Below are positions 13,871 to 62,541 of a stretch of DNA of 64,000 nt, in pieces. The stretch is taken from the IMG/VR virus record IMGVR_UViG_3300031673_000021, positions 1 through 64,000 of that record, one strand, 5' to 3'. The notes beneath the pieces are model-generated. The model saw only the letters and a list, made by a program, of their open reading frames with translations. It was not told the origin of the DNA and made no database searches. Positions within the stretch are counted from its first letter, which is position 1. The number at the start of each line of letters is the position of its first letter. A program made the position numbers and the translations under genes. This DNA comes from a virus.

Positions 13871-14101
13871 TTATGCCGAACTTGATTGACCATGTTCATC
13901 ATGGATGACAACATCGTCAAAAAAAATGTCGTTCACAGGCGTGTTGTAATGCTTCGCGATTGCCAGCATTAGCGAACCGTTTGGGTTAACGCGTTCCTTC
14001 TCGATTTGGATAATTGCTTGGCGCGAAGCACAAACTGCATCGGCTAACTGTTGTTGGCTCTCGTCATGGTCTCTTCTGATTTTGCGAACACAATTCTTCA
14101 A
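13871..14101 (-). CDS. Cro-like XRE-family HTH regulator
   Basis: 76 aa. 'ESQQQLADAVCASRQAIIQIEKE' HTH, divergent from the CI-like gene. Confidence 0.8.
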   Translation of the reverse strand: MKNCVRKIRRDHDESQQQLADAVCASRQAIIQIEKERVNPNGSLMLAIAKHYNTPVNDIFFDDVVIHDEHGQSSSA

Positions 14102-14228
14102 AGGGTCTCCCCCTTTCTCCGTGTCATCCTTGGGTTACAAGTACAGTGTATCCCATGGATTACATGCTGTCAACCATGAAGTACAGATATTTGCGTTTTG
14201 TTTTGTAATGTTTGGTTTACAATCAGCA
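14102..14228. promoter_or_regulatory. divergent cro/cI control region
   Basis: 127-nt AT-rich intergenic region containing inverted repeat TTGTAA-N8-TTACAA (14203-14222) and several TACA-containing repeats. No promoter hexamers assigned confidently. Confidence 0.4.
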
Positions 14229-15221
14229 ATGGGGGTGCATGTAGTGAATTTTGGCGAAGTGTTGAGAGTTCTTCGTGGTAACATGAGCCTGCGCGAAGCA
14301 TCTCGTTTAACAGGTATCAGCCACACATATTTAGATCGACTTGAAAAAGGGGTCGATCCTAGAACCGGGAAACAAATCGAACCGTCTGGTTCTGTCTTAA
14401 ATGCTCTCGCAAATGCGTATAACGTACCCGCAGAGCTAATGCTTATTTTGGTTGGATATATTGACATCATAAAAACGAGTCGAGATCCTGAAATGGTCGA
14501 AATAATGGACAATCTATATCCAACCACCGATAAAGAGCAAATACTTCGATTGATCGAAATGTGGAGAATACAAACAAATGACCGAAAGTTTGATTCGGAC
14601 AGAGAAAGAACATTGGCGGAAACAGACTTCATTACCCGCAATTTATCTCGTCAAGATACCGACCAAGGAAATCAAGACGATAGCGCAGGACAAACTACCT
14701 ACATTCCAAAGGACAAAATACCCATGCCGCAGAATGCCGAAAGGAGTATGTTGGGGTTCCACCCTTCACTCAATGTCCAGCGTAACCAACAGATCGTCAG
14801 AGATGCGCCGGACAAATACACCGAGGGCTACCGTGAAAAAGCTATAATGATCCCTGTCCTCGGTGTCATCCGGGCTGGTTACGACTTATACGCAGAGCAG
14901 CAGGTGATCGACGTGAAATGGGTTCCTGAGGGTGATGTAGCGGATGGAGAATATTTTTATCTGCTGGTCACTGGTGACTCAATGTCGGGCGCGAACATTT
15001 TAGAGGGCATGCGTGTATTGGTTCGGAGACAGGACTGGGTTGACGACGGCAAGATTGGTGTCGTCCTTATCAATGGCGATGAGGCGACGCTTAAGTATGT
15101 CTTCCACGAAGATTCTTATTTCATACTTCAGGCGGCCAATGCAACATATGCACCACGCAAGGTGCCTGTGGAAGAAACACGTATTCTCGGCCAAGTCAAA
15201 GAAGTCGTGTGGTCCGTATGA
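14229..15221 (+). CDS. CI-like repressor (XRE HTH + S24 LexA-type autopeptidase)
   Basis: Start set to ATG 14229. N-terminal HTH 'SLREASRLTGISHTYLDRLEKG'. C-terminal 'LLVTGDSMSGANILEGMRVLV...ATLKYV' supplies the Ser/Lys dyad context. Confidence 0.85.
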   Translation: MGVHVVNFGEVLRVLRGNMSLREASRLTGISHTYLDRLEKGVDPRTGKQIEPSGSVLNALANAYNVPAELMLILVGYIDIIKTSRDPEMVEIMDNLYPTTDKEQILRLIEMWRIQTNDRKFDSDRERTLAETDFITRNLSRQDTDQGNQDDSAGQTTYIPKDKIPMPQNAERSMLGFHPSLNVQRNQQIVRDAPDKYTEGYREKAIMIPVLGVIRAGYDLYAEQQVIDVKWVPEGDVADGEYFYLLVTGDSMSGANILEGMRVLVRRQDWVDDGKIGVVLINGDEATLKYVFHEDSYFILQAANATYAPRKVPVEETRILGQVKEVVWSV

Positions 15222-16618
15222 CGGTCGCTCTTTATATTCGTGTGAGTACGGATGAGCAGGCAAAAGACGGATTCTCCATTGAACATCAGAAACAACGTCT
15301 TGCAGCGTTTTGTGAGTCACAAGGGTGGAATTCATACGAATTTTATATCGATGACGGATATACCGGAACGAATCTGAACCGGCCACAACTCACGCGATTG
15401 ATTCGTCATGTACGGAATCGCAGCGTCAACATAGTTCTGGTGCATCGTTTGGATCGTTTGAGCCGCAAACAGAAAGACGTGCTTTATCTTCTTGAAGATG
15501 TGTTTGACTCCAATGATGTTGCGTTTCGATCAGCCACGGAACCCTTTGACACGTCTACCCCACTCGGCAAAGCCATGCTCGGTATCCTCGCTGTGTTCGC
15601 GCAATTGGAACGAGACACTATCGTCGAGCGGGCGACATCGGGCAAACATGAGCGTATCCGACAGGGGCTATGGTATGGGGGCCCAATTCCCTATGGATAC
15701 GATTGGTCAACAGAGGAACAGCGGCTTGTCGTGAATCCGGCACAAGCGAGAATCATTCAGGAAATGTACGAACACGCATTGCGCGGACAGCCTTATACAA
15801 CTATTGCGAAATGGGCTTCCAGACGCTCTAGGGAACGTTTATTCGGGCATCACAAGACACTCCTCTATATGCTGACGAATCCTCTTTATATGGGCAAACT
15901 CAATCAGCGTGGCGTACACATCAACGGACTGCACGAAGCCATTGTAAGCGAGGAGACATGGCAGGCTGTGCAGAAGGAAATTCGGATACGCAAAAACGGT
16001 CGCGCGATCTATGGAAAGTATCTTCTCAGCGGAATCCTTGTATGTGGTGTCTGCGGCTCATCCATGAAACACATACGAATACAAGACCGTCGATTCAACC
16101 CCCCAAAAATCCGCGACTATTATTTGTGCTCCACCAAGCATTCCGGTCATTCTTGTTCATCCCGATACGTCCCACAACAGGAACTGGAGGACCGAGTTAT
16201 CAACACATTGAAGGACAAATCCGTTGATCCCGACATGGTGATACAGGAACTTTCCGCCCGACGCGAGGATATCAATAGTGTAGAGTCAACGATAGACGCA
16301 CTCAATCGACAACTCGACGAGGTAAAAGTCAAACTGGAACGATGGTACGCTGCCATTGAAAGCGGAATGGACCTCGGCAAGGTTATGCCGCGGATACATG
16401 AGCTAGAGGATGAACAGAAGGCAATTATGCTGCAACTTGATGAATTGGACGGTGCAGACTACGAAGAAACAAACACACGCATTCTTGACTCCTTACACCA
16501 AATCGGACAACAATGGGATAACATGACGAATGAAGAACGCAACGCCGTTTTACACGCTGCGGTCAAGACTATCACGGTAAATTCGGACGGTACGCTCGTG
16601 TTCACCTGGGATGCTTGA
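15218..16618 (+). CDS. large serine recombinase (integrase)
   Basis: 'ALYIRVSTDEQ' catalytic Ser motif, 'HRLDRLSR', a recombinase domain, zinc ribbon 'CGVCGSS...YYLCSTKHSGHSCSS', and a coiled-coil. ATG 15218 overlaps the cI stop (ATGA). Confidence 0.9.
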   Translation: MTVALYIRVSTDEQAKDGFSIEHQKQRLAAFCESQGWNSYEFYIDDGYTGTNLNRPQLTRLIRHVRNRSVNIVLVHRLDRLSRKQKDVLYLLEDVFDSNDVAFRSATEPFDTSTPLGKAMLGILAVFAQLERDTIVERATSGKHERIRQGLWYGGPIPYGYDWSTEEQRLVVNPAQARIIQEMYEHALRGQPYTTIAKWASRRSRERLFGHHKTLLYMLTNPLYMGKLNQRGVHINGLHEAIVSEETWQAVQKEIRIRKNGRAIYGKYLLSGILVCGVCGSSMKHIRIQDRRFNPPKIRDYYLCSTKHSGHSCSSRYVPQQELEDRVINTLKDKSVDPDMVIQELSARREDINSVESTIDALNRQLDEVKVKLERWYAAIESGMDLGKVMPRIHELEDEQKAIMLQLDELDGADYEETNTRILDSLHQIGQQWDNMTNEERNAVLHAAVKTITVNSDGTLVFTWDA

Positions 16619-47229: not shown

Positions 47230-48762
47230 TTAGGTTAACTGAACAGGAGCAGTTGACCCCCCGGGAATCTGGATGTTCTTGATCAACACACAACGGCTTG
47301 GCACATAGATGATCGGTGCGCCGATAAGCGCTACTGCGAAGTACCGGGCGAGTGCCGGGATAGGTAGCGGCCATTTGAAGAATGGTAGCAGTTGCTTAAA
47401 CACTGCGCCTTCTTCAGGGTCGTGGTTAATCAAGAACACATCATAGGTCCCTGCAACAGTCGTGTTCTCGTCGGTAAAGCTCTGCGTGGTGCCAGTTCCT
47501 GCATCGACAACCTTCAGCACGGGCAGGTATGCACCGCCGTTCATGCTACGGTAAATCTGGTAATACGATGCTCCGTTCGTGCCCGTTACACGATTCCATG
47601 TCACAGTCACCGACTCACTGGCTCCCACAGTAACGCTGGTCGTCGCTGCAGACAGTTCTGACGGACCATAGCTGTTGACAGCTTCCACCTTGTAGGTCAC
47701 AGGGCCGCCATTGTACCCAACACCATATTGGTTGGCGTTGGCCGGGGTCTCCCACTTCGATGTGGCAATGTTCGGATCCTCAACAGAAGTGGTATTCAGT
47801 GCCGAACCTACACCCGTCGCGATGGACGGCGCGTTCTGGATGGTTGTCGTGACTGGCTGGTCGACATTCAGGAAAATATCGTTCTCAAACGGGATGTGAC
47901 CATAGGTGGAATTGTACCCACCAACGGGCGTACCAACGTTGAGCGAACCTTCCCGCATCAGCGCAACCTGGTCAATACCATAGCGCTGTGCTGGGGCATA
48001 CGTCTTGCTCCAGTAAGACTGAACCACAGGGGCCATGTATGTCTTGTACATACCGGATGTGATGTCGCCAGCATTGTCCTGCACAGCCTGCGCTGCATTT
48101 TCCAGCAGATCCGGTGTGAGCGGGCCTGCTTCGGCGTCAATCACAACGTTCGAGAAACCGTTGTTAGAGGCGAAGTCGGTGATGATCTTCTTCCATCCGT
48201 CAAACTCGGTTGCCATTATGGAGGAATCTCCGTAGTAGATCAGACGGTTTACTCCACCAAGCAGGAACCGGGTCGCGTTGTTGATCTGCAGGGCTTCTGC
48301 GGATCCGCCAACCACTTCCGTGGCCATGATCGCGATGTCCGTGCTGTATGCGGTCGACAGATACTTCATCGGAACCTGCAGACGGCTAAAGGTCGAGTCA
48401 TTGCCAGCCGGGGTGCCCATGGCGGAAGTTGTGACACCACCACGAGTACCATAACTGAGCAGTTGATCATACTCTTCATTCATCGCGTAGGCTTCCTGCT
48501 TCGCAATGTTGCGCCACGCTTTGACGTTCCGCATTTTGAAGGAGACATTTTTGAGCGTGCGAGCCAAGGATTGCGGAATCAGGGAGCTACCATCTCCAGG
48601 GCCACCAGGGGTCGAAGGAGATGCGACAAGAGCTTTTTGCAGACGATCAAACGTCTGATTGGACAAGTTGCCGCCCATGTAGTTCCCGGTCAACAAGCCG
48701 CCATTGTCCATTTGCAGAGATTTAACAAGTTCTGGTGCCATTACGGTCAACGAGGCCACCAC
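47230..48762 (-). CDS. major capsid protein with FN3/Ig-like insertion
   Basis: 510 aa, following the scaffold gene and followed by a terminator. Residues about 353-446 ('VTVTWNRVTGTNGASYYQIYRS') look FN3-like. Confidence 0.7.
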   Translation of the reverse strand: MVASLTVMAPELVKSLQMDNGGLLTGNYMGGNLSNQTFDRLQKALVASPSTPGGPGDGSSLIPQSLARTLKNVSFKMRNVKAWRNIAKQEAYAMNEEYDQLLSYGTRGGVTTSAMGTPAGNDSTFSRLQVPMKYLSTAYSTDIAIMATEVVGGSAEALQINNATRFLLGGVNRLIYYGDSSIMATEFDGWKKIITDFASNNGFSNVVIDAEAGPLTPDLLENAAQAVQDNAGDITSGMYKTYMAPVVQSYWSKTYAPAQRYGIDQVALMREGSLNVGTPVGGYNSTYGHIPFENDIFLNVDQPVTTTIQNAPSIATGVGSALNTTSVEDPNIATSKWETPANANQYGVGYNGGPVTYKVEAVNSYGPSELSAATTSVTVGASESVTVTWNRVTGTNGASYYQIYRSMNGGAYLPVLKVVDAGTGTTQSFTDENTTVAGTYDVFLINHDPEEGAVFKQLLPFFKWPLPIPALARYFAVALIGAPIIYVPSRCVLIKNIQIPGGSTAPVQLT

Positions 48763-48832
48763 CTATTCTTGAATTTGTGGATCAAAAAAAGCGCCCATTA
48801 TGGACGCTTGGGTAAAACTTGTGGGTGAAATG

Positions 48833-49930
48833 TTAGATCAGCTTTTCCTTGTGCAGGAGTTCCTGAGCTGCGTTGCTGGTATTTGTCCAATCGCGGTCAT
48901 TCTCCAGAATCGTCAGGTCGCGCATACTGATGCCTTCAAGACCCTTCTGGAAAGCGTCTTCCACAACATCAAGCGCCTTGGCAAGGTTGAACTCCTGCTG
49001 TACGGCGCGTTGGGAAGTGGATACCGGCATACCGTAGCCCTTACGAATCGGCTGTGCCTGACCCCGTGGAGCCGCGGCTGATTCCATCTGCCCGAAGCCC
49101 GTAAACTGAGCCTGCGCCGCCACGAGAGACTTAGCCATCTGGCGGTTCTCGTTCTTGATCATCTTCTTCAGTTGGCGATTCTCCAGACGAAGGGCGCGAA
49201 CTTCGGCCACAAAATCGTCTTTCATGTCAAATACAGCGTCGGTGAGAGACTTGATGAACTCATTCCCGTCGACGTACTTCATGGCATCAGCTCCCAGTGC
49301 TTTTCTGACCTTGCGACGGCGCGTTTCGGTCTTTTCATCCGCCTTGGAAGACTTGCGGTGACGTTCGTCGCCTTCTTCGTCGTCCTCGTCTTCGTCCTCA
49401 TCAAGGTCGTCGTCGTCGTTGGAGAGATCGGAAAACTCTTCATCCATGTCGCCACGTGCGGGCGCATTGGACTTCTTCACCTTGCGACGTTTGTGACCAC
49501 GAACCGCCACATACTCGTCGTCATCCTCTGGCAGTTCCAGAGACTCCAGGTCTTCTTCGTCAAGGTCGTCGTCATCCCCCAACGGATCGTAAACGTTCGC
49601 GCCGCGATTGTCCTCAAAGTCTTCGTCATCCGGGTCTTCCGACGTGTCGTCGTCATCATTGACGAAGTGTTCCGGAGACTGAGTCGTTGCGTTGGTGTCC
49701 TCCATCCAGTCGTCCAACTGGTCGTCAGACTGTCCAGATTCACGGTCGAACACGGCCATGTAGTCGGTCTTACCAGCACGTTTCCGGCTGGGAGCGTCCT
49801 TTTGGCGCTTCGGCAGTTTGGCACCGCCATTTGGATCGCTCGGTGCCGTGACAACAGACTTTTTAATTTGCGCCTGTACGATCCGGTCGAAATCCGACAG
49901 GGTCGCTGTAGCCTTTACATTTTTCGGCAC
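48833..49930 (-). CDS. scaffolding protein (poly-acidic)
   Basis: GTG 49930 (AAGGAGG upstream). Long D/E tracts and a helical C-terminus, between the protease and capsid genes. Confidence 0.6.
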   Translation of the reverse strand: MPKNVKATATLSDFDRIVQAQIKKSVVTAPSDPNGGAKLPKRQKDAPSRKRAGKTDYMAVFDRESGQSDDQLDDWMEDTNATTQSPEHFVNDDDDTSEDPDDEDFEDNRGANVYDPLGDDDDLDEEDLESLELPEDDDEYVAVRGHKRRKVKKSNAPARGDMDEEFSDLSNDDDDLDEDEDEDDEEGDERHRKSSKADEKTETRRRKVRKALGADAMKYVDGNEFIKSLTDAVFDMKDDFVAEVRALRLENRQLKKMIKNENRQMAKSLVAAQAQFTGFGQMESAAAPRGQAQPIRKGYGMPVSTSQRAVQQEFNLAKALDVVEDAFQKGLEGISMRDLTILENDRDWTNTSNAAQELLHKEKLI

Positions 49931-49934
49931 GGTT

Positions 49935-50930
49935 TTATTCCTCCTTCGTGAGTAGGCCAGAACCTTTGAGCAGAGACAAAATGGCATTTACTTCGGCTCC
50001 GTTCCGGTGTTCACAGCCATAAAAATGACGGGCCGCTGTGCGCAGTCCGCCTTTGACAGTTCCGTCCGCATTAATGTGCGGGCAGTGTGGATTATTGCGT
50101 ATATGCTCACGCAGATGGTCGCGAATGACATCGAGTGGATGCCCTCTTGACCTCTGATGTAGCTGGGTCAGTCTTTTATCCAGGGATTTCATCACAAGTG
50201 GCTCCCGACTGAGTGCATATCTTGCACACCATGTCGCCTGGTTCTCTGGGAGTCCATGAACATCCATGAAATATGCAACGTCCATGTCATGCTTGAAGGT
50301 TCCGACCGGATCGAAGTACGGATTGTTTGATTTCACAATAAGGTTCCCACTGTGAATATCCGTAATATCTGCCGCCCATCGACTTATTGCTATTCGTCGC
50401 GTATCCATCGGACGATATTCCACACTTGCTCCCGCTGCGAGGCTCTTTGCAAAATCCACGAACGTACCCGGATGAACCGGTGTGGGTGTTAGCGCCACAT
50501 TGCGGATAAATGCTTTTAGAATACGCGTCGGATCTTGTGGGTCATATTGCTTCACAACACCCTCGATAGACATTCCATAGCGCCGTGGCCACCCCGCTTC
50601 TTTCAGCGCCTTCATTTGCTCAATGATCTTCTGCATCAGTGGCGTTTTTAGTGCCTTCCACTTGAGCCAGAACCCCTGCGGTGTAATCTTTCCTTCGAGA
50701 GGCACACCGACAATGGTCTCAGGTTGATGATCGTAGTTCACGAACCCACCACTACCTGGCGGGAGCCCTTTGCCGAGTAGATAGTCAATCTCAAGACCGT
50801 TTGGCAGGACTTCTTCACCTTGTAGGTCTCGACCCGACAATGAGGCGATCCCTTCGAAGATCCAATCACCGTTTGCATCCTGTTCGGACTTTACAATCTC
50901 AGCGCCGAAGTGGAATGACTTTTCTACCAA
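49935..50930 (-). CDS. prohead serine protease (S78/HK97-like) with C-terminal extension
   Basis: N-terminal about 175 aa: 'GRDLQGEEV...FVNYDH' (His) and 'YGMSIEGVV' (Ser), as in HK97-type proteases. The C-terminal about 155 aa are unassigned. Confidence 0.55.
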   Translation of the reverse strand: MVEKSFHFGAEIVKSEQDANGDWIFEGIASLSGRDLQGEEVLPNGLEIDYLLGKGLPPGSGGFVNYDHQPETIVGVPLEGKITPQGFWLKWKALKTPLMQKIIEQMKALKEAGWPRRYGMSIEGVVKQYDPQDPTRILKAFIRNVALTPTPVHPGTFVDFAKSLAAGASVEYRPMDTRRIAISRWAADITDIHSGNLIVKSNNPYFDPVGTFKHDMDVAYFMDVHGLPENQATWCARYALSREPLVMKSLDKRLTQLHQRSRGHPLDVIRDHLREHIRNNPHCPHINADGTVKGGLRTAARHFYGCEHRNGAEVNAILSLLKGSGLLTKEE

Positions 50931-51008: not shown

Positions 51009-51296
51009 TCATTCGTTGCCCGTGATCCGTGATTTCCGTCGACCTTGAGATACCCGAAGGGCTTTCTCTGGAAGTGTTTCGTCACGTTCATTTTGTCTGT
51101 CATCGTCTGGTTCATCCAGCGACAACCTTGACTGCCTGGTTCGTTCGTCCTTGATTCCAAAGGCCCGCCTCACTGCGGTTGATACGTCGTCATCGTCATC
51201 TGAGGTGTCCTCGTAATATTGGAACATGCGGGCAATAGCTCTGACTTCTTCCTCAGTCGCTTCAAATCGGAATAACTTGATTGCTTTGATTTTCAC
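51009..51296 (-). CDS. hypothetical acidic protein
   Basis: 95-aa ORF between the cargo-like genes and the protease gene. Confidence 0.45.
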   Translation of the reverse strand: MKIKAIKLFRFEATEEEVRAIARMFQYYEDTSDDDDDVSTAVRRAFGIKDERTRQSRLSLDEPDDDRQNERDETLPEKALRVSQGRRKSRITGNE

Positions 51297-51319: not shown

Positions 51320-53407
51320 TCACTTGGCAATGGGAAATACGATGGTAAAGGACTTTTTCATTTCTGCGTCCTTCAACACAAGGCCAAAGTGTTTCTTGGC
51401 AAAGCGACGAATTCTCGCCTCAACACGTTCTAGGTCTTCCTTGCTGTACTTGGAACGGTCCTCTTTGGTATGAATGTATCTCCATGCTGCAAGTGTGCGT
51501 TCGCGGCTTGGCTTGCCATTCTTCGTGAGTGGGTAACTGTCATGTCTGGGATCAGCAAACACTTCGTCGGCTCCATAACGATCTCGTTTGGAACGTTTGA
51601 CTTCACGCCATTCGGATTTGGTACGCATGGACTTTGACACCTCCTCGCCTCCCGTTACTCGTTGTGCGATTCGCATGGCTTCAGGAGACCTCATTCTTTG
51701 CCATGCGCCTTTTTCACCGTTTGGACCAGCGGCAGTCGGTGACCAATGAAACCCGCGAGATTTAAGTTTTGCACGAGTTTCTGCATCCGGTTTTCCGTCG
51801 AAGAAAATTTGCACACGGTTGTCATCTACATTGTCGTGGATGATGCCGCCGTCAAACTCGTGGGAAGTGGATGTGTCGGAACGCTTACGGCTCAGTTCCT
51901 CAACGCGGGCTTTCATGCGTTTGACGTTGGCGAGGTTGTTTTGGAGCATGTAACTTGGAATACCTATACGACCCATATAGTCTGGTTCCAGCGCTTGACG
52001 AGCCAGCTTTTCACCAATACCGAGCTTCATCATCTCTTCAACTTTTTGGTCGTCCGTCAATTTCTTCTTACGGAAAACAGAGTTAATTTTCTTGTATTTC
52101 TCTTGCATCTTCTCAGCCTCGTCGATTTTGGCTTGGAGTTGTTGCACTGCGTCGTGCTCATCGGCAGAAACGGGACGATTTGGACTATATTGTTTCAATG
52201 TGTGCCCTAAATGCTTCTTTGCATTTTCAACTTTCTCTATTGCGTTTCGTGTGATAGCATCCGCCTTATCTGGTCTTCCGTTGTATTTGGCACGTCCGGT
52301 AACTGTCCACGGCGGTGCAACTTCACGCGAACGAATTTGCTCACGCATAAAATGTTCGTGTGCTCCTGCGAGCCGCTTTAACGCATCTCGCACATCGCTT
52401 GGCATTCCATCTACACCGTAGCGTTTGAGTTGCGCCATTGCGCGTTCACGGTCGGTTTGAACTTGCTCACTGTGTTGTTGGTTGAGTTTGTCTGCTGTGG
52501 TCGGCCAGTGAGTTGTATTGTTGTATCGACTGGCATCCATTTCACTGAATGGACCTGCAATTTTCGGCTTCGGTTGTTCCTGTTTTGATTGGGCTTCCGA
52601 ATCTCGTTTTGCACGTTGCTCATCAAGAAATTTGCGATTCTTTTCTTCTGCCTCTTTTCTCAATCGCTCTCTCTCTTTATCGTGAGTGTCCTTTGGCAAA
52701 AAGCGTGTGCCGGCACGTTTTTCGTCGTGAATCTGATATTCACCCACACGATTAAAACGGCGTCCTCCACCAACTTCCTTCAGATCGTAATAAGGATTCC
52801 CTTCAAAGTGATGTACCTTGTCCACTTCAAATGTTCCAGAATGATTCGCTTGATCCCCTGTATAGTGAATCTGCGTCCCAACCTTGTGTTTTGGCGTTTG
52901 TGGCTCAGGCGCATTCTTGCGGTGTGTATCGGGCACCTTGTCGGCTTCTGTCCATCCGCCAGGAGGTTCATTGTTAAACGGATTTCTGGGTGCTGTCATA
53001 CCTGATGGTGCGCTCGTTTGATGTCCCGGCATCACATGACTGACAGGAACCTTTACATTGGAACCCTTGACATCGACCGTCAATGTATCACCATACACAT
53101 GCTTGACGGTGCCTGAGAGCTTCTTGTTACTTCCCGGCCGTTGATAAGTTACGGTGGACCCAACATGATATGGATGTCCTTCGACAATCTTCCCAATCTT
53201 GTCCACCGAGTTCCCGTGCCAGTGCTTGGGTACATCACCACCGACAATCCGTCCACTTTCGTCGATTAAGATACGCCTATAATCGCTGTGCTCTGTCGTC
53301 TTGCCGTTCTTCTTCCCAACGATTTTCCCTGCCCCGTTTGGATGAATCGTGATCCATCTCGTTCCGGATGCACTGTTGGCCTTCGCCAATTCAAACATTA
53401 CCCTCAC
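51320..53407 (-). CDS. large multidomain protein with DUF3560-like region
   Basis: 695 aa. 'DNRVQIFFDGKPDAETRAKLKSRGFHWSP...GAWQR' and the preceding helical region match my memory of DUF3560. There are N-terminal SH3/KOW-like repeats and a basic C-terminus. Confidence 0.55.
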   Translation of the reverse strand: MRVMFELAKANSASGTRWITIHPNGAGKIVGKKNGKTTEHSDYRRILIDESGRIVGGDVPKHWHGNSVDKIGKIVEGHPYHVGSTVTYQRPGSNKKLSGTVKHVYGDTLTVDVKGSNVKVPVSHVMPGHQTSAPSGMTAPRNPFNNEPPGGWTEADKVPDTHRKNAPEPQTPKHKVGTQIHYTGDQANHSGTFEVDKVHHFEGNPYYDLKEVGGGRRFNRVGEYQIHDEKRAGTRFLPKDTHDKERERLRKEAEEKNRKFLDEQRAKRDSEAQSKQEQPKPKIAGPFSEMDASRYNNTTHWPTTADKLNQQHSEQVQTDRERAMAQLKRYGVDGMPSDVRDALKRLAGAHEHFMREQIRSREVAPPWTVTGRAKYNGRPDKADAITRNAIEKVENAKKHLGHTLKQYSPNRPVSADEHDAVQQLQAKIDEAEKMQEKYKKINSVFRKKKLTDDQKVEEMMKLGIGEKLARQALEPDYMGRIGIPSYMLQNNLANVKRMKARVEELSRKRSDTSTSHEFDGGIIHDNVDDNRVQIFFDGKPDAETRAKLKSRGFHWSPTAAGPNGEKGAWQRMRSPEAMRIAQRVTGGEEVSKSMRTKSEWREVKRSKRDRYGADEVFADPRHDSYPLTKNGKPSRERTLAAWRYIHTKEDRSKYSKEDLERVEARIRRFAKKHFGLVLKDAEMKKSFTIVFPIAK

Positions 53408-53420
53408 GTCGTCACCTCCT

Positions 53421-55145
53421 TTACCATGGTTTCACGGCCGGGGTATCGTTGCGGCCCAATGACTGATGCCCCCCGACCCAATCCTCACTCGTCTGCATTT
53501 CACGCAACTTTGCAAGAATGAGTTGGAACACATATCGCGCATGCCGACCGCTGACAGTGACACGGTTCCCACGCACATCCACTTTGCAACCGCCATACTC
53601 AGCAACGCCGTTATGTGGTTCGAACTCATACCCTGCATGGTGAAGGATGCTCCATACACTGTTGGAAGTCGGTGTATAGGTCGTGAGTGCCTTTAGGAGA
53701 CGTAGCGGCCCATTCTTCGGCACATACACGTTAAACGCTGTCTGATCGTCTGAGACGCGGTAATGGGTTCCTTTTGTATCACTCTCGGTTGCCTTCACGC
53801 TCACGCTGTCACGCGCCTTTGTGCCCATGACGCGGCGGTAAAAGGTGTATACGTCTTGTGGGCCACTCGCGTGTGTATCTGCACCCCAGGATTCGAGCCA
53901 GTCGTCTGCACGAGACTGTTTCCCTGGCATCGTGGCGAATGGAGAGGGAGTGCGATAGTCGCCGGAGTCAATGGACTTCTTCACGTTGCCGCTGACAAAC
54001 TTTCGCATGAGTGCATCCCATTTGTTATCGCCAAATCCGAGCTTGTCTTTGAAGGTGTTGCGTGTGATGCCTTGTTCCTTGACAAACTCTTTGAGTGGCG
54101 GATTGAAATGATAGGCGGACACGTCTGACATGCGTGTGGCAATACATGTAGCCTTCGTACCACGAAGAAGGAAGTACCACTCTCCCCACCCGTCTGATGC
54201 TCGCCATACCTCGCCTTTAATGCCTTCCGCACGTTTAGACCAACGCGGACGATCTGGTTTCTCGTCTTTGTCGCTCACAAAGTCTCTGTAGGCACGCTCA
54301 TAAGCGCGTTGTAAGGCTGGACGAATGGTTTTCTGATCTGTGTGCCCATCATTGGTTCTGAGTGCTTTGGAAACGGTCTCCTGTGGCGCGTGACGGTCTT
54401 TCATCGTGTCAATGATGGTGCCAATGATTTGACGCGCAAACACGCGGTCCTTTTCCTTTTCGTCCTCGCTCAGTTCCTCATACGGGACATACATGGACTC
54501 CCACGCTTCTGCATGGGCTTCTGGCATCTCAGGTGCAACCTTCTTGGCAAAGTCCACCCATTGATCGTGGACATCGGCAGCAATCGCTTCGAGTAACAGG
54601 CCCGATTCTGTATTCAGGGTAGAGACGAAGTCGTAGAATGCATCCTTCATCGGGTCAGCGATGGATTTTCCACGCATTTTATCGCCTTCCTTCCGGAGTT
54701 CATTCATGGTAAACACGGACTTATTGAGCTTGCGCCGATGCATCTCGGCGTCCCAAGGGCCATCGCTATGTTTACCCGTTGCCACCCATGCTTGAATTGA
54801 CTTCTTACCGGCATGTTGGAACGCCAATGTGCGATGGTAGCCGTCTGCGATTTTGTATCCACCCTTAACCTGCACCAGAACGACGGGCTCCATCTTCTCG
54901 CCTGATTTGATTGCTTCCGCTATCCGTTGCACCTTGTCTGGATTGCGACCGCCAGGTCTACGTGCCATTTTGATGTTGGAGAGGGGCACACGTTTCAACT
55001 CCCAATTTTCGCCCTTTACCCATTTCAGGACATCGGCGGGGTAATTCTCACGCAGGTAGGCATAGACATCTTCTCCTTTGTGACGGCTTTGCGTCTGCAA
55101 ACCCTTGCGAATGGGCACGATAAATTTGTCTGCCATGCGAATCAC
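53421..55145 (-). CDS. ParB/Srx N-terminal-domain protein with RyR-like segment
   Basis: 574 aa. 'PVVLVQVKGGYKIADGYHRTLAFQHAG' is the ParB-type motif. 'HDQWVDFAKKV...YVPYEELSEDEKEKDRVFARQI' resembles the bacterial/phage RyR domain. Confidence 0.6.
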   Translation of the reverse strand: MIRMADKFIVPIRKGLQTQSRHKGEDVYAYLRENYPADVLKWVKGENWELKRVPLSNIKMARRPGGRNPDKVQRIAEAIKSGEKMEPVVLVQVKGGYKIADGYHRTLAFQHAGKKSIQAWVATGKHSDGPWDAEMHRRKLNKSVFTMNELRKEGDKMRGKSIADPMKDAFYDFVSTLNTESGLLLEAIAADVHDQWVDFAKKVAPEMPEAHAEAWESMYVPYEELSEDEKEKDRVFARQIIGTIIDTMKDRHAPQETVSKALRTNDGHTDQKTIRPALQRAYERAYRDFVSDKDEKPDRPRWSKRAEGIKGEVWRASDGWGEWYFLLRGTKATCIATRMSDVSAYHFNPPLKEFVKEQGITRNTFKDKLGFGDNKWDALMRKFVSGNVKKSIDSGDYRTPSPFATMPGKQSRADDWLESWGADTHASGPQDVYTFYRRVMGTKARDSVSVKATESDTKGTHYRVSDDQTAFNVYVPKNGPLRLLKALTTYTPTSNSVWSILHHAGYEFEPHNGVAEYGGCKVDVRGNRVTVSGRHARYVFQLILAKLREMQTSEDWVGGHQSLGRNDTPAVKPW

Positions 55146-55146
55146 C

Positions 55147-55782
55147 TCACTCGTTGTCTTGAAACAGAAGTTCGCCCCATCGTTTCTTATCTACACTTTT
55201 ATAGTTAGACATTGGAATGGTCGTCCATAAAATCGGCTTGTTGTCGCGGAATCCAACCATCACAACTACGCTTTTATCGCGTTCACCCATGACGTGATAG
55301 CCTGCGATAAAAACGCGACCATCTTCATTCCCTTTTCCGACAGGTTGCTTCCAAACTTCCCACGGCTGAATCAAAGTTTCTACTGCGGCACGAAAATAAC
55401 GGATACGATTGTCTGCCTCAATGCGTGACTTTTCATTTTCCCAATGTCCGTAATACTTTCGTTCAATACTGATGTACATGTTTCCGTAACTTGATGGCAG
55501 ACTGACCCATCCGTTTTTGTCGGTGTGGAATATCTCTTTTAGGCTGTGCAGAAACGAATTCAAATCTTCGACTGTTTCAATGGGCTTGACCAATCGGCTT
55601 GCTTTCTTCCGCATAACTTCATCCCACCTCGGAAGGTTATATTCCTTCCATGTTTTCTTGCTTGTCACAGGTTCTTTGTCTGGTTTCCAATGGCCCGACA
55701 CTTTGTGGATGTGTCCATTCTTGCTTCGCCGGTAATATTCGCGCGTCCACCCCTTCTTGATGGGAATCAGGAACAGGATCAT
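55147..55782 (-). CDS. MuF-coupled protein (possible PBECR-type nuclease module)
   Basis: 211 aa from ATG 55782 (ATGA-coupled to the MuF-like stop). The family call rests only on position and a His/Arg-rich core ('YYGHWENEKSRIEADNRIRY'). Confidence 0.35.
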   Translation of the reverse strand: MILFLIPIKKGWTREYYRRSKNGHIHKVSGHWKPDKEPVTSKKTWKEYNLPRWDEVMRKKASRLVKPIETVEDLNSFLHSLKEIFHTDKNGWVSLPSSYGNMYISIERKYYGHWENEKSRIEADNRIRYFRAAVETLIQPWEVWKQPVGKGNEDGRVFIAGYHVMGERDKSVVVMVGFRDNKPILWTTIPMSNYKSVDKKRWGELLFQDNE

Positions 55783-56684
55783 ACACTCACCAATTCCCGT
55801 TTCGGTGCCATATAACTGTATGGATCCCCGCCGCGATACTTTACAATCACATGCCTGCATTTCGGATGAAGTGGCAGACAGGGTATCCAGTCTTCGCGTT
55901 TGCGCCCAACGTTACTTTTCCCAGGCCATAGATATTGCTCGCGCTGTTGTTTTGTCGGGTTCTCGATTTTCACCGGTGAAACGTAGAATACTTTCCCCTC
56001 AAGAAGATGTTTGCAAGCGGAGCAAACTTTGCCGTCCCCAATGACAGGCACAACCACATGCTTCCCTGCGAGCATCGTCAATGTGGCATCGTTATACGCC
56101 ATGCTCATCTCGGTCGCAGCGATGGTCTGAAAGTGTTGACCGTAATGGGCCCACCGTTGTTCCAGCCGTTCTGCCAGTTCGTTTGCTGTGATACTTTCGC
56201 GAATGGCTTGTACGACTTGCCAGCGTACATCCTCGCGCATTCCGCCTGCCCATTCACGCATCTTTGACGCAGCGGATTGACGGGCGATCCATTCGGCCTG
56301 CTTTGGATACTTCGGTATGTTGACCACATGTAGAGTCCCGGGTGCTTCCGGAACGTTGATCCACGGTCCCTTTTCAGGCAAACGATCAATATGCTTGACC
56401 CTGCGTTCTGCAAGTTGAATCACATTCGATATTTCTTCTGCTACATGATCCACATTTAACGGATCATCTTCCGTTACATCCTTGACACGCTGATACGTGC
56501 GAAGCGATGGTTTATTTAACGCATCCCTGGTGACAGCCCAGGCATCCTGCATCCATGTGGCTGCAAACCCACTCGCATATTTCAAGATTCGTTCTTCCGC
56601 TTGTTGCAGATTCGGATCAGGCCACGCTTCGGAGGTGTCGCCAGACAGTTCCTTTAACCGCTGTTCCCAATTCAGCCAGTCCAT
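55779..56684 (-). CDS. head morphogenesis protein (SPP1 gp7 / Mu F family)
   Basis: 301 aa. C-terminal 'CSACKHLLEGKVF...LPLHPKCRHVIV' signature. Directly downstream of the portal gene. Confidence 0.75.
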   Translation of the reverse strand: MDWLNWEQRLKELSGDTSEAWPDPNLQQAEERILKYASGFAATWMQDAWAVTRDALNKPSLRTYQRVKDVTEDDPLNVDHVAEEISNVIQLAERRVKHIDRLPEKGPWINVPEAPGTLHVVNIPKYPKQAEWIARQSAASKMREWAGGMREDVRWQVVQAIRESITANELAERLEQRWAHYGQHFQTIAATEMSMAYNDATLTMLAGKHVVVPVIGDGKVCSACKHLLEGKVFYVSPVKIENPTKQQREQYLWPGKSNVGRKREDWIPCLPLHPKCRHVIVKYRGGDPYSYMAPKRELVSV

Positions 56685-56699
56685 GCGACACCATCCTTT

Positions 56700-58208
56700 C
56701 TATGCTAGTTTCAGTGCCCTCCACGCCTTTTCCACGGCCTTTTCGTCTTCTGATGTATTGAGGGGCACATCCTGCGCTCCGACGCCTTGTGGACCGTTTC
56801 CGGGTGCTTGTGGCTGACTAAATCCATTCTCTTGCATCCATACCTGCAGTAAACGTGGATTAGCCGGAGCATCCAACCACTTTACATCCGCCGACGTTCC
56901 TGGGGGGGCTTCTTCAAGCCCCATAGCTTTGCGCCATTCCCGGCCAGTTAGGGCACCCTCGTTTAATTGCTTGTCAAGATAGGTGACTTTCGCCTGCTCA
57001 TCCTCTGCATTGATGCCGGTCCAACGGAACATGTAACCAGGAGCAAGATATGGCATGATATGCTGATTGATCGACATTTCCACGAGGTCGAGAATCGGCA
57101 GCAAACCTTTATCCCGCGACAGGTCAATCTTCGCCTCAGTGTTATCCGATGCGCTGATACCACCGCTATTGCTCGCGGTTCTCTGCCCGATCTCTACAGG
57201 ATCGGTGAGAAACACGCCCGCAATCTTCGTGGAAATTTTGTCGAGGAAGTCCCCCATTTCCATATCGCGGTTTGACTGTTTCATCGGAATCCACTGAATG
57301 GAGGACCCGCCATTTGGGGAAGGTTCGACCGCTAGAGCCACGGGCTTATGCTGACCCACAACACCCTTTACGTCCGTATCCCACATGGTATTAAGGGATT
57401 CCATGGTATCCTCCGACATATTACCGATAAGCGCAAGAATGCCGGGTGGTACGCTACCATGGTCGAAATAGTTGGAGTTATACTGGAGTGCCAACACTTC
57501 AGCGGCAATCCAGTCGGATGAACCCTCGGTCGGAGAAATGGCATAGCCGCCATTTTCGATGTCCGTCACAGGATCCGCCTGCATGTACATGAGTTCGTCC
57601 TGTGCATACTCGGTTTCGATCTGACCGTCAACCACCTGCACATAGCGCACCGGCTGTTCGAGTTCGCGGCCGTATCGAGTCGTAGGGATGTATCGCTCTG
57701 CCCATTGCAATTCAATCGTGGCGGAGTCAATGCCCCAATACTCTGACAACCGGCCTTCCTCGTCGTACACGAGTTCCGTTGCGCCAGCCCCGATGATTAG
57801 GATGTCTCGTATTGTGGACTTCAACCACTTGCTGAAGTCTTTGCGATCCCACGACTTCTTGTTGCCTGCACCCATGATGAAGTTGTAGGCATATGCTGCA
57901 ACCTTCTCGTCATGCGCTGTTTTCTTCCCTGGATCGTCGATACGAACAATCTCAAATCCGCGATCTCCTTTATGCCTTGGGGCACGTGCGAAACTCGCCA
58001 CTTGGGACTGTCGCAGACGGATGATAGCTTGTACCGTCGGAGACAGTTTTGCAAGCTGACGGAGCTGAGTCCAGGATAGGGAAAATCCCCCCCAACGGCT
58101 GCCCGGCGGTGAAAACGCCCAACTCGGCGAGACAATAACGGATCTCCTACGATGCGGCTTATCTTCAAGACTACGCTGTCTGGTATCGATGGTAGGCATG
58201 GGCATCAC
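56700..58208 (-). CDS. portal protein
   Basis: 502 aa, upstream of the MuF-like gene. Overall portal-like pattern. Confidence 0.7.
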   Translation of the reverse strand: MMPMPTIDTRQRSLEDKPHRRRSVIVSPSWAFSPPGSRWGGFSLSWTQLRQLAKLSPTVQAIIRLRQSQVASFARAPRHKGDRGFEIVRIDDPGKKTAHDEKVAAYAYNFIMGAGNKKSWDRKDFSKWLKSTIRDILIIGAGATELVYDEEGRLSEYWGIDSATIELQWAERYIPTTRYGRELEQPVRYVQVVDGQIETEYAQDELMYMQADPVTDIENGGYAISPTEGSSDWIAAEVLALQYNSNYFDHGSVPPGILALIGNMSEDTMESLNTMWDTDVKGVVGQHKPVALAVEPSPNGGSSIQWIPMKQSNRDMEMGDFLDKISTKIAGVFLTDPVEIGQRTASNSGGISASDNTEAKIDLSRDKGLLPILDLVEMSINQHIMPYLAPGYMFRWTGINAEDEQAKVTYLDKQLNEGALTGREWRKAMGLEEAPPGTSADVKWLDAPANPRLLQVWMQENGFSQPQAPGNGPQGVGAQDVPLNTSEDEKAVEKAWRALKLA

Positions 58209-61389: not shown

Positions 61390-61421
<32 letters not shown>

Positions 61422-61467
61422 GCGCGTTTTTATTGATTCATTGAGCATTTTATGCTATGCTTTTAAC

Positions 61468-62541
61468 ATGAACATAACTTTGATGGTCAAGCTCATGCCG
61501 ACAACCGAACAACATAACGCTTTGCTTGGGACGATGGAGCGATTCAACGCGGCCTGTGGTGCGATTGCGGCGGTTGCGTTTGAACTGCACACGGCGAATA
61601 AGATTCGTTTGCAACAGGTGGTCTACGATGACATCCGCAAACGCTTCGGATTGTCCTCACAAATGACCGTCCGAGCCATTGCTAAGACCTGTGAAGCGTA
61701 CAAACGGGACAAGTCGATTCTGCCAACCTTCAAACCACATGGAGCCATGGTCTACGACCAACGTCTGTTGTCTTGGAAGGGGCTTGACCGCGTTTCCATC
61801 CTGACTTTGGATGGACGAATTCTGGTGCCAATTGTCTACGGTGCATACCAAGCTGCGAGACTCAAACGCATTCGCGGGCAAGCAGACCTCATATATCGCG
61901 ATGGCACGTTCTATCTGGCCGTCGTGGTTGATGTTCCCGAACCACCTAAGGGAACACCAGATGGCTGGCTCGGCGTGGATCTCGGCATAGCCAACATTGC
62001 TGTTGACTCTGATGGCGAATCATTCTCTGGCGCCCAAGTGAACGGCTTGCGGCATCGCCACGCGCGCCTTCGCCAGCGTCTTCAATCGAAAGGCACAAAG
62101 TCAACCAAACGACTACTCAAAAAGCGCCGCCGCAAAGAAGCGCGGTTTGCCGCAAATGAAAATCATCGAATCGCCAAGAAAATAGTGACGAAAGCCAAAG
62201 ACACCGGGCGCGGAATCTCCCTTGAAGATTTGAATGGAATCCGTGATCGGGTAACGGTTCGCAAGGCGCAGCGTCGTCAACATCATTCTTGGTCGTTCCA
62301 TCAGCTTCGCTCCTTCATCGAGTACAAGGCGATTCTTGCAGGTATACTTGTGCGTTCAGTTGATCCACGTAACACCTCTCGCACTTGCCCTGCTTGTGGA
62401 CACGTGGACAAAAAGAACCGTCCCACGCGAGATAAGTTTGAGTGTGTCGAGTGCGGATTCGCTGGTCCGGCTGACCACATTGCTGCGATCAATATTGGTC
62501 GCAGGGCAGCAGTCATACTGCCGTACGCGGGCGTAATTTAG
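61468..62541 (+). CDS. tnpB: TnpB (OrfB) RNA-guided-nuclease-family protein
   Basis: 357 aa from ATG 61468. 'WLGVDLGIANIAV' (RuvC-I Asp), 'ISLEDLNGIR' (Glu), zinc finger 'CPACGH...CVECGF', and 'ADHIAAINI' (RuvC-III Asp). Confidence 0.9.
   Translation: MNITLMVKLMPTTEQHNALLGTMERFNAACGAIAAVAFELHTANKIRLQQVVYDDIRKRFGLSSQMTVRAIAKTCEAYKRDKSILPTFKPHGAMVYDQRLLSWKGLDRVSILTLDGRILVPIVYGAYQAARLKRIRGQADLIYRDGTFYLAVVVDVPEPPKGTPDGWLGVDLGIANIAVDSDGESFSGAQVNGLRHRHARLRQRLQSKGTKSTKRLLKKRRRKEARFAANENHRIAKKIVTKAKDTGRGISLEDLNGIRDRVTVRKAQRRQHHSWSFHQLRSFIEYKAILAGILVRSVDPRNTSRTCPACGHVDKKNRPTRDKFECVECGFAGPADHIAAINIGRRAAVILPYAGVI

Follow-up and report, generated by a model that had tools for sequence, protein, structure and literature searches.

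Genes between MuF and the prohead protease

The first 64,000 nucleotides of the IMG/VR virus record IMGVR_UViG_3300031673_000021 (the whole stretch analyzed here, referred to as the window), a metagenomic contig of 73.6 kb, carry on the minus strand a head-assembly operon with the order portal protein, MuF/SPP1 gp7-type head morphogenesis protein, p211, p571, p695, p95, prohead maturation protease, scaffold-like protein and major capsid protein. We are concerned here with p211 (211 residues; 55147-55782), p571 (571 residues; 53421-55136) and p695 (695 residues; 51320-53407). An earlier, sequence-only reading had described three open reading frames (ORFs) of 211, 574 and 695 codons between the MuF and protease genes as a split cargo cluster; all three are present on the minus strand, with p95 as an additional gene. 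Since conserved homologues of p211, p571 and p695 occupy syntenic positions in other contigs, the three are real genes and not chance ORFs. The ATG of p211 overlaps the stop codon of the MuF gene as ATGA (4 nt), a coupling noted in that reading and seen directly in the sequence, and the remaining intergenic gaps of the block measure 10, 13 and 23 nt. In a consensus scan, promoter-like and terminator-like sites are rarer in the block than in shuffled sequence. Because the gaps are tight and there is no convincing internal promoter or terminator, we regard the block as part of a single late operon. Two starts deserve comment. A mechanical ORF list gives p211 as 237 residues, from an upstream in-frame ATG. 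For p571, the ATG at 55136 (571 residues) is likelier than the GTG at 55145 (574 residues), because a GGTGA motif lies 5 nt before the former and the public gene call agrees; the residue numbers of p571 used below follow the 574-residue version.

MuF and the PBECR2 protein p211

The MuF gene (55779-56684, minus strand; 301 residues) is recognized by TIGR01641 (E = 2.7e-5) and by a PHROG head morphogenesis family (E = 1e-4), and scores 26.4 bits with Pfam Phage_Mu_F, below the cut-off of 29.6 bits. Its product is 55-58% identical to the syntenic MuF proteins of three related loci, L003, L004 and L006, and its C-terminal region has a Cys/His-rich segment, VCSACKH...PLHPKCRH, and no fused C-terminal effector. 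The coupled protein p211 consists of an N-terminal region of about 100 residues followed by a PBECR2 domain (residues 105-208), of the BECR-fold ribonuclease type, which scores 29.7 bits with PF18810, above the cut-off of 27.1, and covers model positions 26-120 of 120. Residues H113, R126, R128, R131, W186-T187 and S192 are invariant in five homologues, all of them close (52-66% identity), while the first 25 model positions are unaligned in p211; the invariant His, three Arg and Thr/Ser residues would be compatible with the active site described for BECR ribonucleases (Iyer et al., 2017; PMC5512222).

The sequence-only reading had pointed out that p211 stands where MuF-fused modules of the PBECR type occur. 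The domain type is supported, and it is not fused to MuF: p211 is a separate ORF, all five homologues are stand-alone proteins, and in L003 the PBECR2 gene sits upstream of MuF. These facts also bear on the possibility that p211 is a polymorphic toxin, split from MuF, that kills or arrests competitors while a cognate immunity protein shields lysogens. BECR-fold ribonucleases of the PBECR2 type are also used in toxins, the gene is translationally coupled to MuF, and MuF-toxin fusions have been described (PMC5512222); with the domain unfused here and in every homologue, the inverted order in L003, and no small immunity-like gene next to p211, p571 beginning 10 nt downstream, we nonetheless hold this explanation to be highly improbable. 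Membership of the MuF-fused toxins proper was rejected on the separate, ATGA-overlapping ORFs, the stand-alone homologues and the lack of a downstream immunity-like gene.

Domains of p571

Judged by its predicted structure, the N-terminal domain of p571 (residues 20-145; 54711-55088, minus strand) is a member of the ParB/Srx superfamily, as had been read from the sequence. AlphaFold2 models residues 20-130 with a predicted local distance difference test (pLDDT) score above 90, and Foldseek matches the model, with probability 1.0, to the ParB-CTP structure 7bnr (E = 2.3e-5) and to Noc, KorB and sulfiredoxin, the last being the most compact match (template modeling score 0.6-0.69). The region, within which GGYKIADGYHRTLAF falls, is also found by phrog_1033 (E = 4.9e-7). 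The motifs ARRPGGR and ADGYHR show no variation in sets of 25 and of 29 family members, and the fold is accompanied by the conserved active-site Arg at the DGxHR/GERR position. Two narrower assignments were rejected. A canonical partition ParB is not supported by PF02195 (14.6 bits against a cut-off of 26.3) or TIGR00180 (21.5 against 58.45), and is disfavored by context, the block having no ParA gene and lying in a head operon. The DdrB-like ParB clade gave no PF18763 match to p571 at E<=5, using the same tool that detects PF18763 elsewhere.

The ParB/Srx-type domain is followed by a RyR-like segment (residues 177-245; 54411-54617, minus strand), also proposed earlier, which includes VPYEELSEDEKEKDR. 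In p571 itself PF02026 reaches 22.9 bits (E = 1.1e-4), short of the cut-off of 27.4, and it is in relatives that the assignment holds, the homologous segments of proteins P0015 (29.0 bits) and P0069 (29.4 bits) passing the cut-off; P0015 aligns to residues 193-246 of p571 with 37% identity. Two further regions make up the middle and C-terminal part of the protein (residues 261-574; 53424-54365, minus strand). These roughly 310 residues gave no Pfam or PDB sequence match; identity in relatives is 46-64%, and the C-terminal part is conserved in L003, L004 and L006. A tblastn search with p571 of 50,697 GenBank phage records found no match, and no near-identical DNA was found among GenBank phages, so that there is no characterized relative to draw on.

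Domains of p695

Five parts can be told apart in p695, all features lying on the minus strand: a leader motif of about 55 residues (residues 12-68; 53204-53374), delimited with a local hidden Markov model (HMM); two SH3/Tudor-like beta-barrel segments (residues 80-127 and 175-225; 52733-53170); a coiled linker; a 310-residue core (residues 283-592; 51632-52561), formed by a helical region and a small alpha/beta C-terminal domain; and a DUF6582 domain in the basic C-terminal tail (residues 608-673; 51389-51586). The barrels, which the sequence-only reading had called SH3/KOW-like repeats, are weakly matched (RimP-SH3, E = 0.033; tandem Tudor by Foldseek, E ~0.03; model pLDDT 45-69). The basic tail that it had seen is present and is identified as DUF6582 by PF20223, at 33.8 bits with a cut-off of 27.3. 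A Foldseek search of the PDB with the p695 model returned nothing below 1e-3, with weak Tudor/SH3-like barrels as its sole matches, and PDB sequence searches with profiles of both the p571 and the p695 families gave nothing meaningful.

The core, whose conserved residues are mostly Arg, Lys, Asn and Gln, is recovered by phrog_6744 (E = 2.9e-42) over a region that contains NRVQIFFDGKPD...GAWQR (residues 530-571), and its membership of the DUF3560 family is confirmed by homology. The Pfam model itself (PF12083) has no direct match to p695. It does match relatives of the core, namely P0005/P0006 (2.5e-5), P0053 (27.4 bits, cut-off 27.2) and one giant protein (1.2e-34). Plasmid proteins annotated as DUF3560 domain-containing align by tblastn to residues 378-578 (36% identity, E = 1e-28), the matches being spread over 423 plasmid records, 222 of them conjugative, and the core has a structural match to a viral DUF3560 domain-containing protein in BFVD (E = 2e-10). 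The DUF3560-like region announced earlier therefore stands by homology, which includes the segment that had been quoted for it, and was misplaced with regard to the Pfam model, which maps to residues ~320-446, upstream of NRVQIFFDGKPD. The label 'primase', which is attached to phrog_19458 and to the phage FP_Toutatis, was rejected as a function, since neither p695 nor its family yielded a primase domain.

Exchange of modules among relatives

L003, L004 and L006 share the head genes of the window (MuF 55-58%, protease 65-68% and capsid 73-75% identity) and differ in what lies between them. In L003, where PBECR2 precedes MuF, the p571 counterpart is a 569-residue protein with the RyR and C-terminal regions and without ParB, and p695 is represented by a 173-residue gene of leader and DUF6582. 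L004 has MuF, a ParB-RyR-C protein with a 300-residue extension, and a beta-barrel and core protein without DUF6582. L006, from an Alicyclobacillus metagenome-assembled genome, has MuF, a 136-residue gene, a ParB-RyR-C protein, and a protein in which about 450 residues of other sequence, with a weak zinc-peptidase match, stand between leader and DUF6582. We conclude that the slot is conserved and its content modular; and since L003 has neither ParB nor the DUF3560 core, neither is needed for head assembly. Both fusion and fission of these ORFs, a comparison called for earlier, are found: in P0002 the p695 modules are joined to a ParB-like domain, in L003 the DUF6582 tail is a gene apart, and in L004 the ParB protein has gained its 300 residues. 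L001 is more distant, and its p695 homologue (72% identity) likewise has a ParB-like domain at the C-terminus. In the p571 counterpart of L003 (6988-8697), the place of the ParB and middle regions is taken by a segment that contains FTHNHPNRLSFSPEDI; this is a metal-site motif of the JAB/RadC-like form HxHx7Sx2D (HNHP...S..D), and it has no Pfam match. Immediately upstream of the p695 homologue in L001 (9029-9997), and of a ParB-clade gene in L014 (4277-5515), there is a glycosyltransferase of family 4, 'GT4-conflict' type, a further conflict-type gene in the same slot.

The leader has the consensus HW[IV]T[IV]..G..GRH[IV]LID..G.I[IV]GG..P..HG, which in p695 reads RWITIHP...RRILIDESGRIVGG..P..HG, and matches no Pfam family. 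It is also seen in loci L001, L003, L004, L006 and L008, and in larger relatives it precedes each module, with two to three copies per protein in P0049, P0004, P0050 and P0059 by the local HMM. The frame of leader and DUF6582 encloses nothing in L003 and another payload in L006. That the leader, alone or with the DUF6582 tail, might serve as a portable loading or processing signal is a speculative and unlikely idea. If the leader did target proteins to the procapsid or mark a site of cleavage by the prohead protease, it would constitute a natural cassette system through which arbitrary proteins could be loaded into phage heads.

The ParB clade and the phage head

Homologues of the p571 ParB domain, 45-70% identical over about 120 residues, occur in many architectures: C-terminal to a Mu-type portal (Portal_Mu; P0022) or an HK97-type portal (Phage_portal; P0042), between MuF and an ATLF-type peptidase (P0035), N-terminal to an XkdF-type prohead protease (S78_2; P0026), with 2H and RyR (P0015), and with RyR and DUF6582 (P0014). 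In a viral sample of 29 non-redundant ORFs from IMG/VR contigs, 13 are fused to a head protein (portal in 11, MuF in one, prohead protease in one); in the portal fusions ParB is a C-terminal extension, at offsets of ~550-700 residues, and where the clade is unfused the commonest upstream neighbors are the large terminase, MuF or portal genes. Among the ParB-clade ORFs of loci L015-L051, fusions to HipA-like kinase, PI3/PI4-kinase-like, NUDIX and peptidoglycan-binding domains are also found, and one IMG/VR ORF of the clade carries a Hint/LAGLIDADG intein.

The C-terminal end of the portal faces the capsid lumen, and a ParB domain fused to it therefore lies inside the head. This position lends itself to another interpretation, in which the proteins are accessories of packaging or ejection that stay in the capsid interior: ParB/Srx, perhaps with DUF3560 and DUF6582, would attach at the portal to the packaged genome or to its end. 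The proteins would help to retain the DNA, to sense a full head or to control ejection, a role of the kind proposed for SPP1 gp7, and would not act on the host. DNA and nucleotides are ligands of ParB domains, as in the PDB structures matched here, the residues conserved in the p695 core are of a suitable kind, and ejection is not expected of a portal subunit, as which ParB occurs in 11 of the 29 ORFs. Such a role is difficult to reconcile with a block that varies among phages with 55-75% identical head proteins, with the lack of both ParB and the core in L003, where head function requires neither, and with the effector-like partners found in relatives (PBECR2 ribonuclease, 2H phosphoesterase, ATLF peptidase, HipA-like kinase, NUDIX, ART). 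On balance, we regard it as unlikely, if worth keeping in mind.

The DUF3560-family core in giant and stand-alone proteins

An exhaustive profile search returned 6,066 cluster representatives related to the p695 core, 1,218 of them at E<=1e-30, which are either stand-alone proteins (~300 residues) or segments within proteins of 1,000-5,000 residues. A Pfam scan of 15 of these giants found LPD38 in four, ART-PolyVal in three, ddrB-ParB, Zeta toxin, 2H phosphoesterase and RadC in two each, and PBECR2 and DUF3560 (E = 1.2e-34) in one each. LPD38, ART-PolyVal, ddrB-ParB and PBECR2 are names given to domains of polyvalent proteins by Iyer et al. (2017), who also discuss 2H and RadC (PMC5512222). 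The sequence-only reading had taken the domain types of the block for components of polyvalent proteins, and the presence of these six domains in core-bearing giants shows this to be correct. The defining feature of such proteins, several unrelated effector-type domains in one polypeptide, is found in p571 and in p695; compared with giants of 2-15 domains, however, these two are small and split across genes.

Stand-alone genes of the DUF3560 family, coding for 355 residues, were seen in the Escherichia coli plasmid RCS82_pI (L010, NZ_LT985302.1; 5557-6624) and in Yersinia phage vB_YpM_39 (L011; 4557-5624), both of them phage-plasmid-like elements.

In phage-plasmids, and in FP_Toutatis under the annotation 'primase', stand-alone DUF3560-family genes have early or recombination genes as neighbors, which is one reason to ask whether p211, p571 and p695 are packaged at all. 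They might be accessory genes acquired by the head operon, whose late-expressed products stay unpackaged and work in the cytoplasm, either at a late stage of infection or when expressed from the prophage, in host nucleic-acid degradation, superinfection exclusion, or support of recombination or replication. The slightly lower G+C content and stronger AT skew of the block relative to the flanking head genes would fit, as would a nearby TnpB insertion, by which the region is seen to tolerate insertions. Yet the genes are translationally coupled within the operon and lack a separate promoter, four relatives conserve the MuF-protease slot, and fusions of the ParB clade to portal, MuF and protease recur, so that we consider this explanation doubtful and decidedly unlikely.

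Other genes of the head operon and of the window

The portal gene (56700-58208, minus strand; 502 residues) is identified by Pfam Phage_portal (E = 7.6e-21) and phrog_12 (E = 2.1e-40). At the other end of the block lies p95 (51009-51296, minus strand), an acidic protein of 95 residues without a family match in Pfam or PHROG profile searches, which keeps its position directly upstream of the protease in relatives (40-44% identity in L003, L004 and L006) and probably belongs to the cargo block with p211, p571 and p695. It is followed, on the same strand, by the prohead maturation protease (49935-50930; 331 residues; phrog_1028, E = 1.9e-33), an acidic protein identified as scaffold-like by position and composition (48833-49930; 365 residues in the public gene call; 42-59% identity in relatives) and the major capsid protein (47230-48762; phrog_752, E = 2.4e-59). 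A hairpin with a 9-bp stem and a following T-run (48789-48809, minus strand), between the scaffold and major capsid genes, is the sole good terminator-like site of the head operon; it may act as an attenuator and so set the ratio of capsid to scaffold.

The window also codes for a tail sheath, a baseplate, a serine integrase and a CI/LexA-like repressor, on the basis of which we take the element to be a temperate myovirus; its host is probably an Alicyclobacillus-like Firmicute. The repressor (phrog_4, with a UmuD-like peptidase part) and the large serine integrase (phrog_95, E = 5.7e-129) are found at 14082-16618 on the plus strand. About 3 kb upstream of the portal gene, where the terminase would be expected, a TnpB/IS605 OrfB-type gene with a Cas12f1-like TNB domain (61411-62541, plus strand) adjoins a 'Lockin' gene (PF26760; 62573-63088, minus strand). 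The large terminase of L003 was used as a query for a homologue in the window and none was found; we conclude that the terminase gene lies outside it.

A probable capsid-loaded cargo region

Taking together the gene order, the translational coupling, the domain identities, the place of the p695 core in the polyvalent network, the head fusions of the ParB clade and the shuffling of modules, the best explanation of the block is a variable cargo region of the head-assembly operon that codes for small proteins of several modules, related to the polyvalent proteins. For ParB, PBECR and 2H domains encoded next to virion genes, whether solo or fused, a role as injected effectors has been predicted, within a framework that covers MuF and portal fusions and the mosaicism of modules (PMC5512222). 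We accordingly think it probable, while allowing considerable room for doubt, that p211, p571 and p695 are capsid-loaded accessory proteins that act early. In such a scheme, they would be made together with the head proteins and be taken into the procapsid close to, or at, the portal/MuF vertex. They would later exit along with the DNA and, in the first minutes of infection, before phage gene expression, would have host RNA, nucleotides or DNA as their targets. Encapsidation is inferred from the fusions and the operon position; ejection, action on the putative targets and a possible role against host defenses would follow.

Several points weigh against this interpretation. The phage is known from metagenomes alone, the scores of the ParB, RyR and MuF regions of the window proteins fall below Pfam cut-offs, and no function can be assigned to about half of p571 or to the N-terminal third of p695. 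The complete models are of moderate confidence, with a mean pLDDT of 68 for p571 and of 60 for p695. A portal fusion places ParB in the capsid interior and says nothing on exit. Moreover, the DUF3560 genes of RCS82_pI and vB_YpM_39 sit among early or recombination genes (Ref nuclease, DUF1064) and not among head genes, and since stand-alone genes thus occur outside head modules, the module needs no packaging to work. Their setting is compatible with an early function that is supplied either by early expression or by packaging beforehand.

The locus gives testable candidates for capsid-delivered early effectors and links the widespread, uncharacterized DUF3560, DUF6582 and RyR modules to the proposed strategy of capsid delivery. 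It is a clean and compact example from a phage lineage without an isolated representative, in which the head operon has one fixed slot and modules of the polyvalent type occupy it as individual genes that can be swapped.

Comparison with known systems

The Dar system of phage P1 (DarA, DarB, DdrA and DdrB) and the internal proteins and Alt of phage T4 are packaged in the capsid and injected with the DNA. The mode of action proposed here resembles theirs, in that head-loaded proteins would act at entry; for the present lineage it is a prediction. P1 DdrB has a ParB-superfamily domain (PMC5512222); the ddrB-ParB family is not matched by p571. In MuF proteins (Mu gp30, SPP1 gp7) with a C-terminal PBECR or toxin domain, as here, MuF is directly coupled to a PBECR-family domain, and MuF-PBECR and portal-PBECR fusions are the simplest of the published architectures (PMC5512222). 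Here, in contrast, PBECR2 is an ORF of its own, its homologues are stand-alone, and the order is inverted in L003. The plasmid and phage-plasmid DUF3560 proteins resemble the p695 core, at 36% identity over about 200 residues, but are stand-alone proteins of ~300-355 residues, whereas the core of p695 is framed by leader, barrels and DUF6582 within a head operon.

The closest parallel is with the polyvalent proteins (Iyer, Burroughs, Anand, de Souza and Aravind, 2017; PMC5512222). Both contain PBECR2 and ParB-superfamily domains, with 2H in relatives of the present proteins; in both, the genes have late virion genes as neighbors, fusions to MuF or portal are seen in relatives, and modules are shuffled extensively. 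A polyvalent protein is one giant polypeptide, whereas here the modules are spread over three adjacent genes coding for 211-695 residues; the ParB domain of p571 differs in not belonging to the DdrB-like clade; and RyR, DUF3560 and DUF6582 are terms absent from the main text of the 2017 publication. The concept dates from that year, as does most of the domain logic, and the locus is an expected, if well supported, example and not a new kind of system, which leaves the current picture unchanged. What it adds is a ParB/Srx clade, distinct from that of DdrB, that is strongly tied to portal, MuF and protease; the recruitment of RyR, DUF3560 and DUF6582 into the same slot of the head operon; and, possibly, the repeated leader motif that heads the modules.

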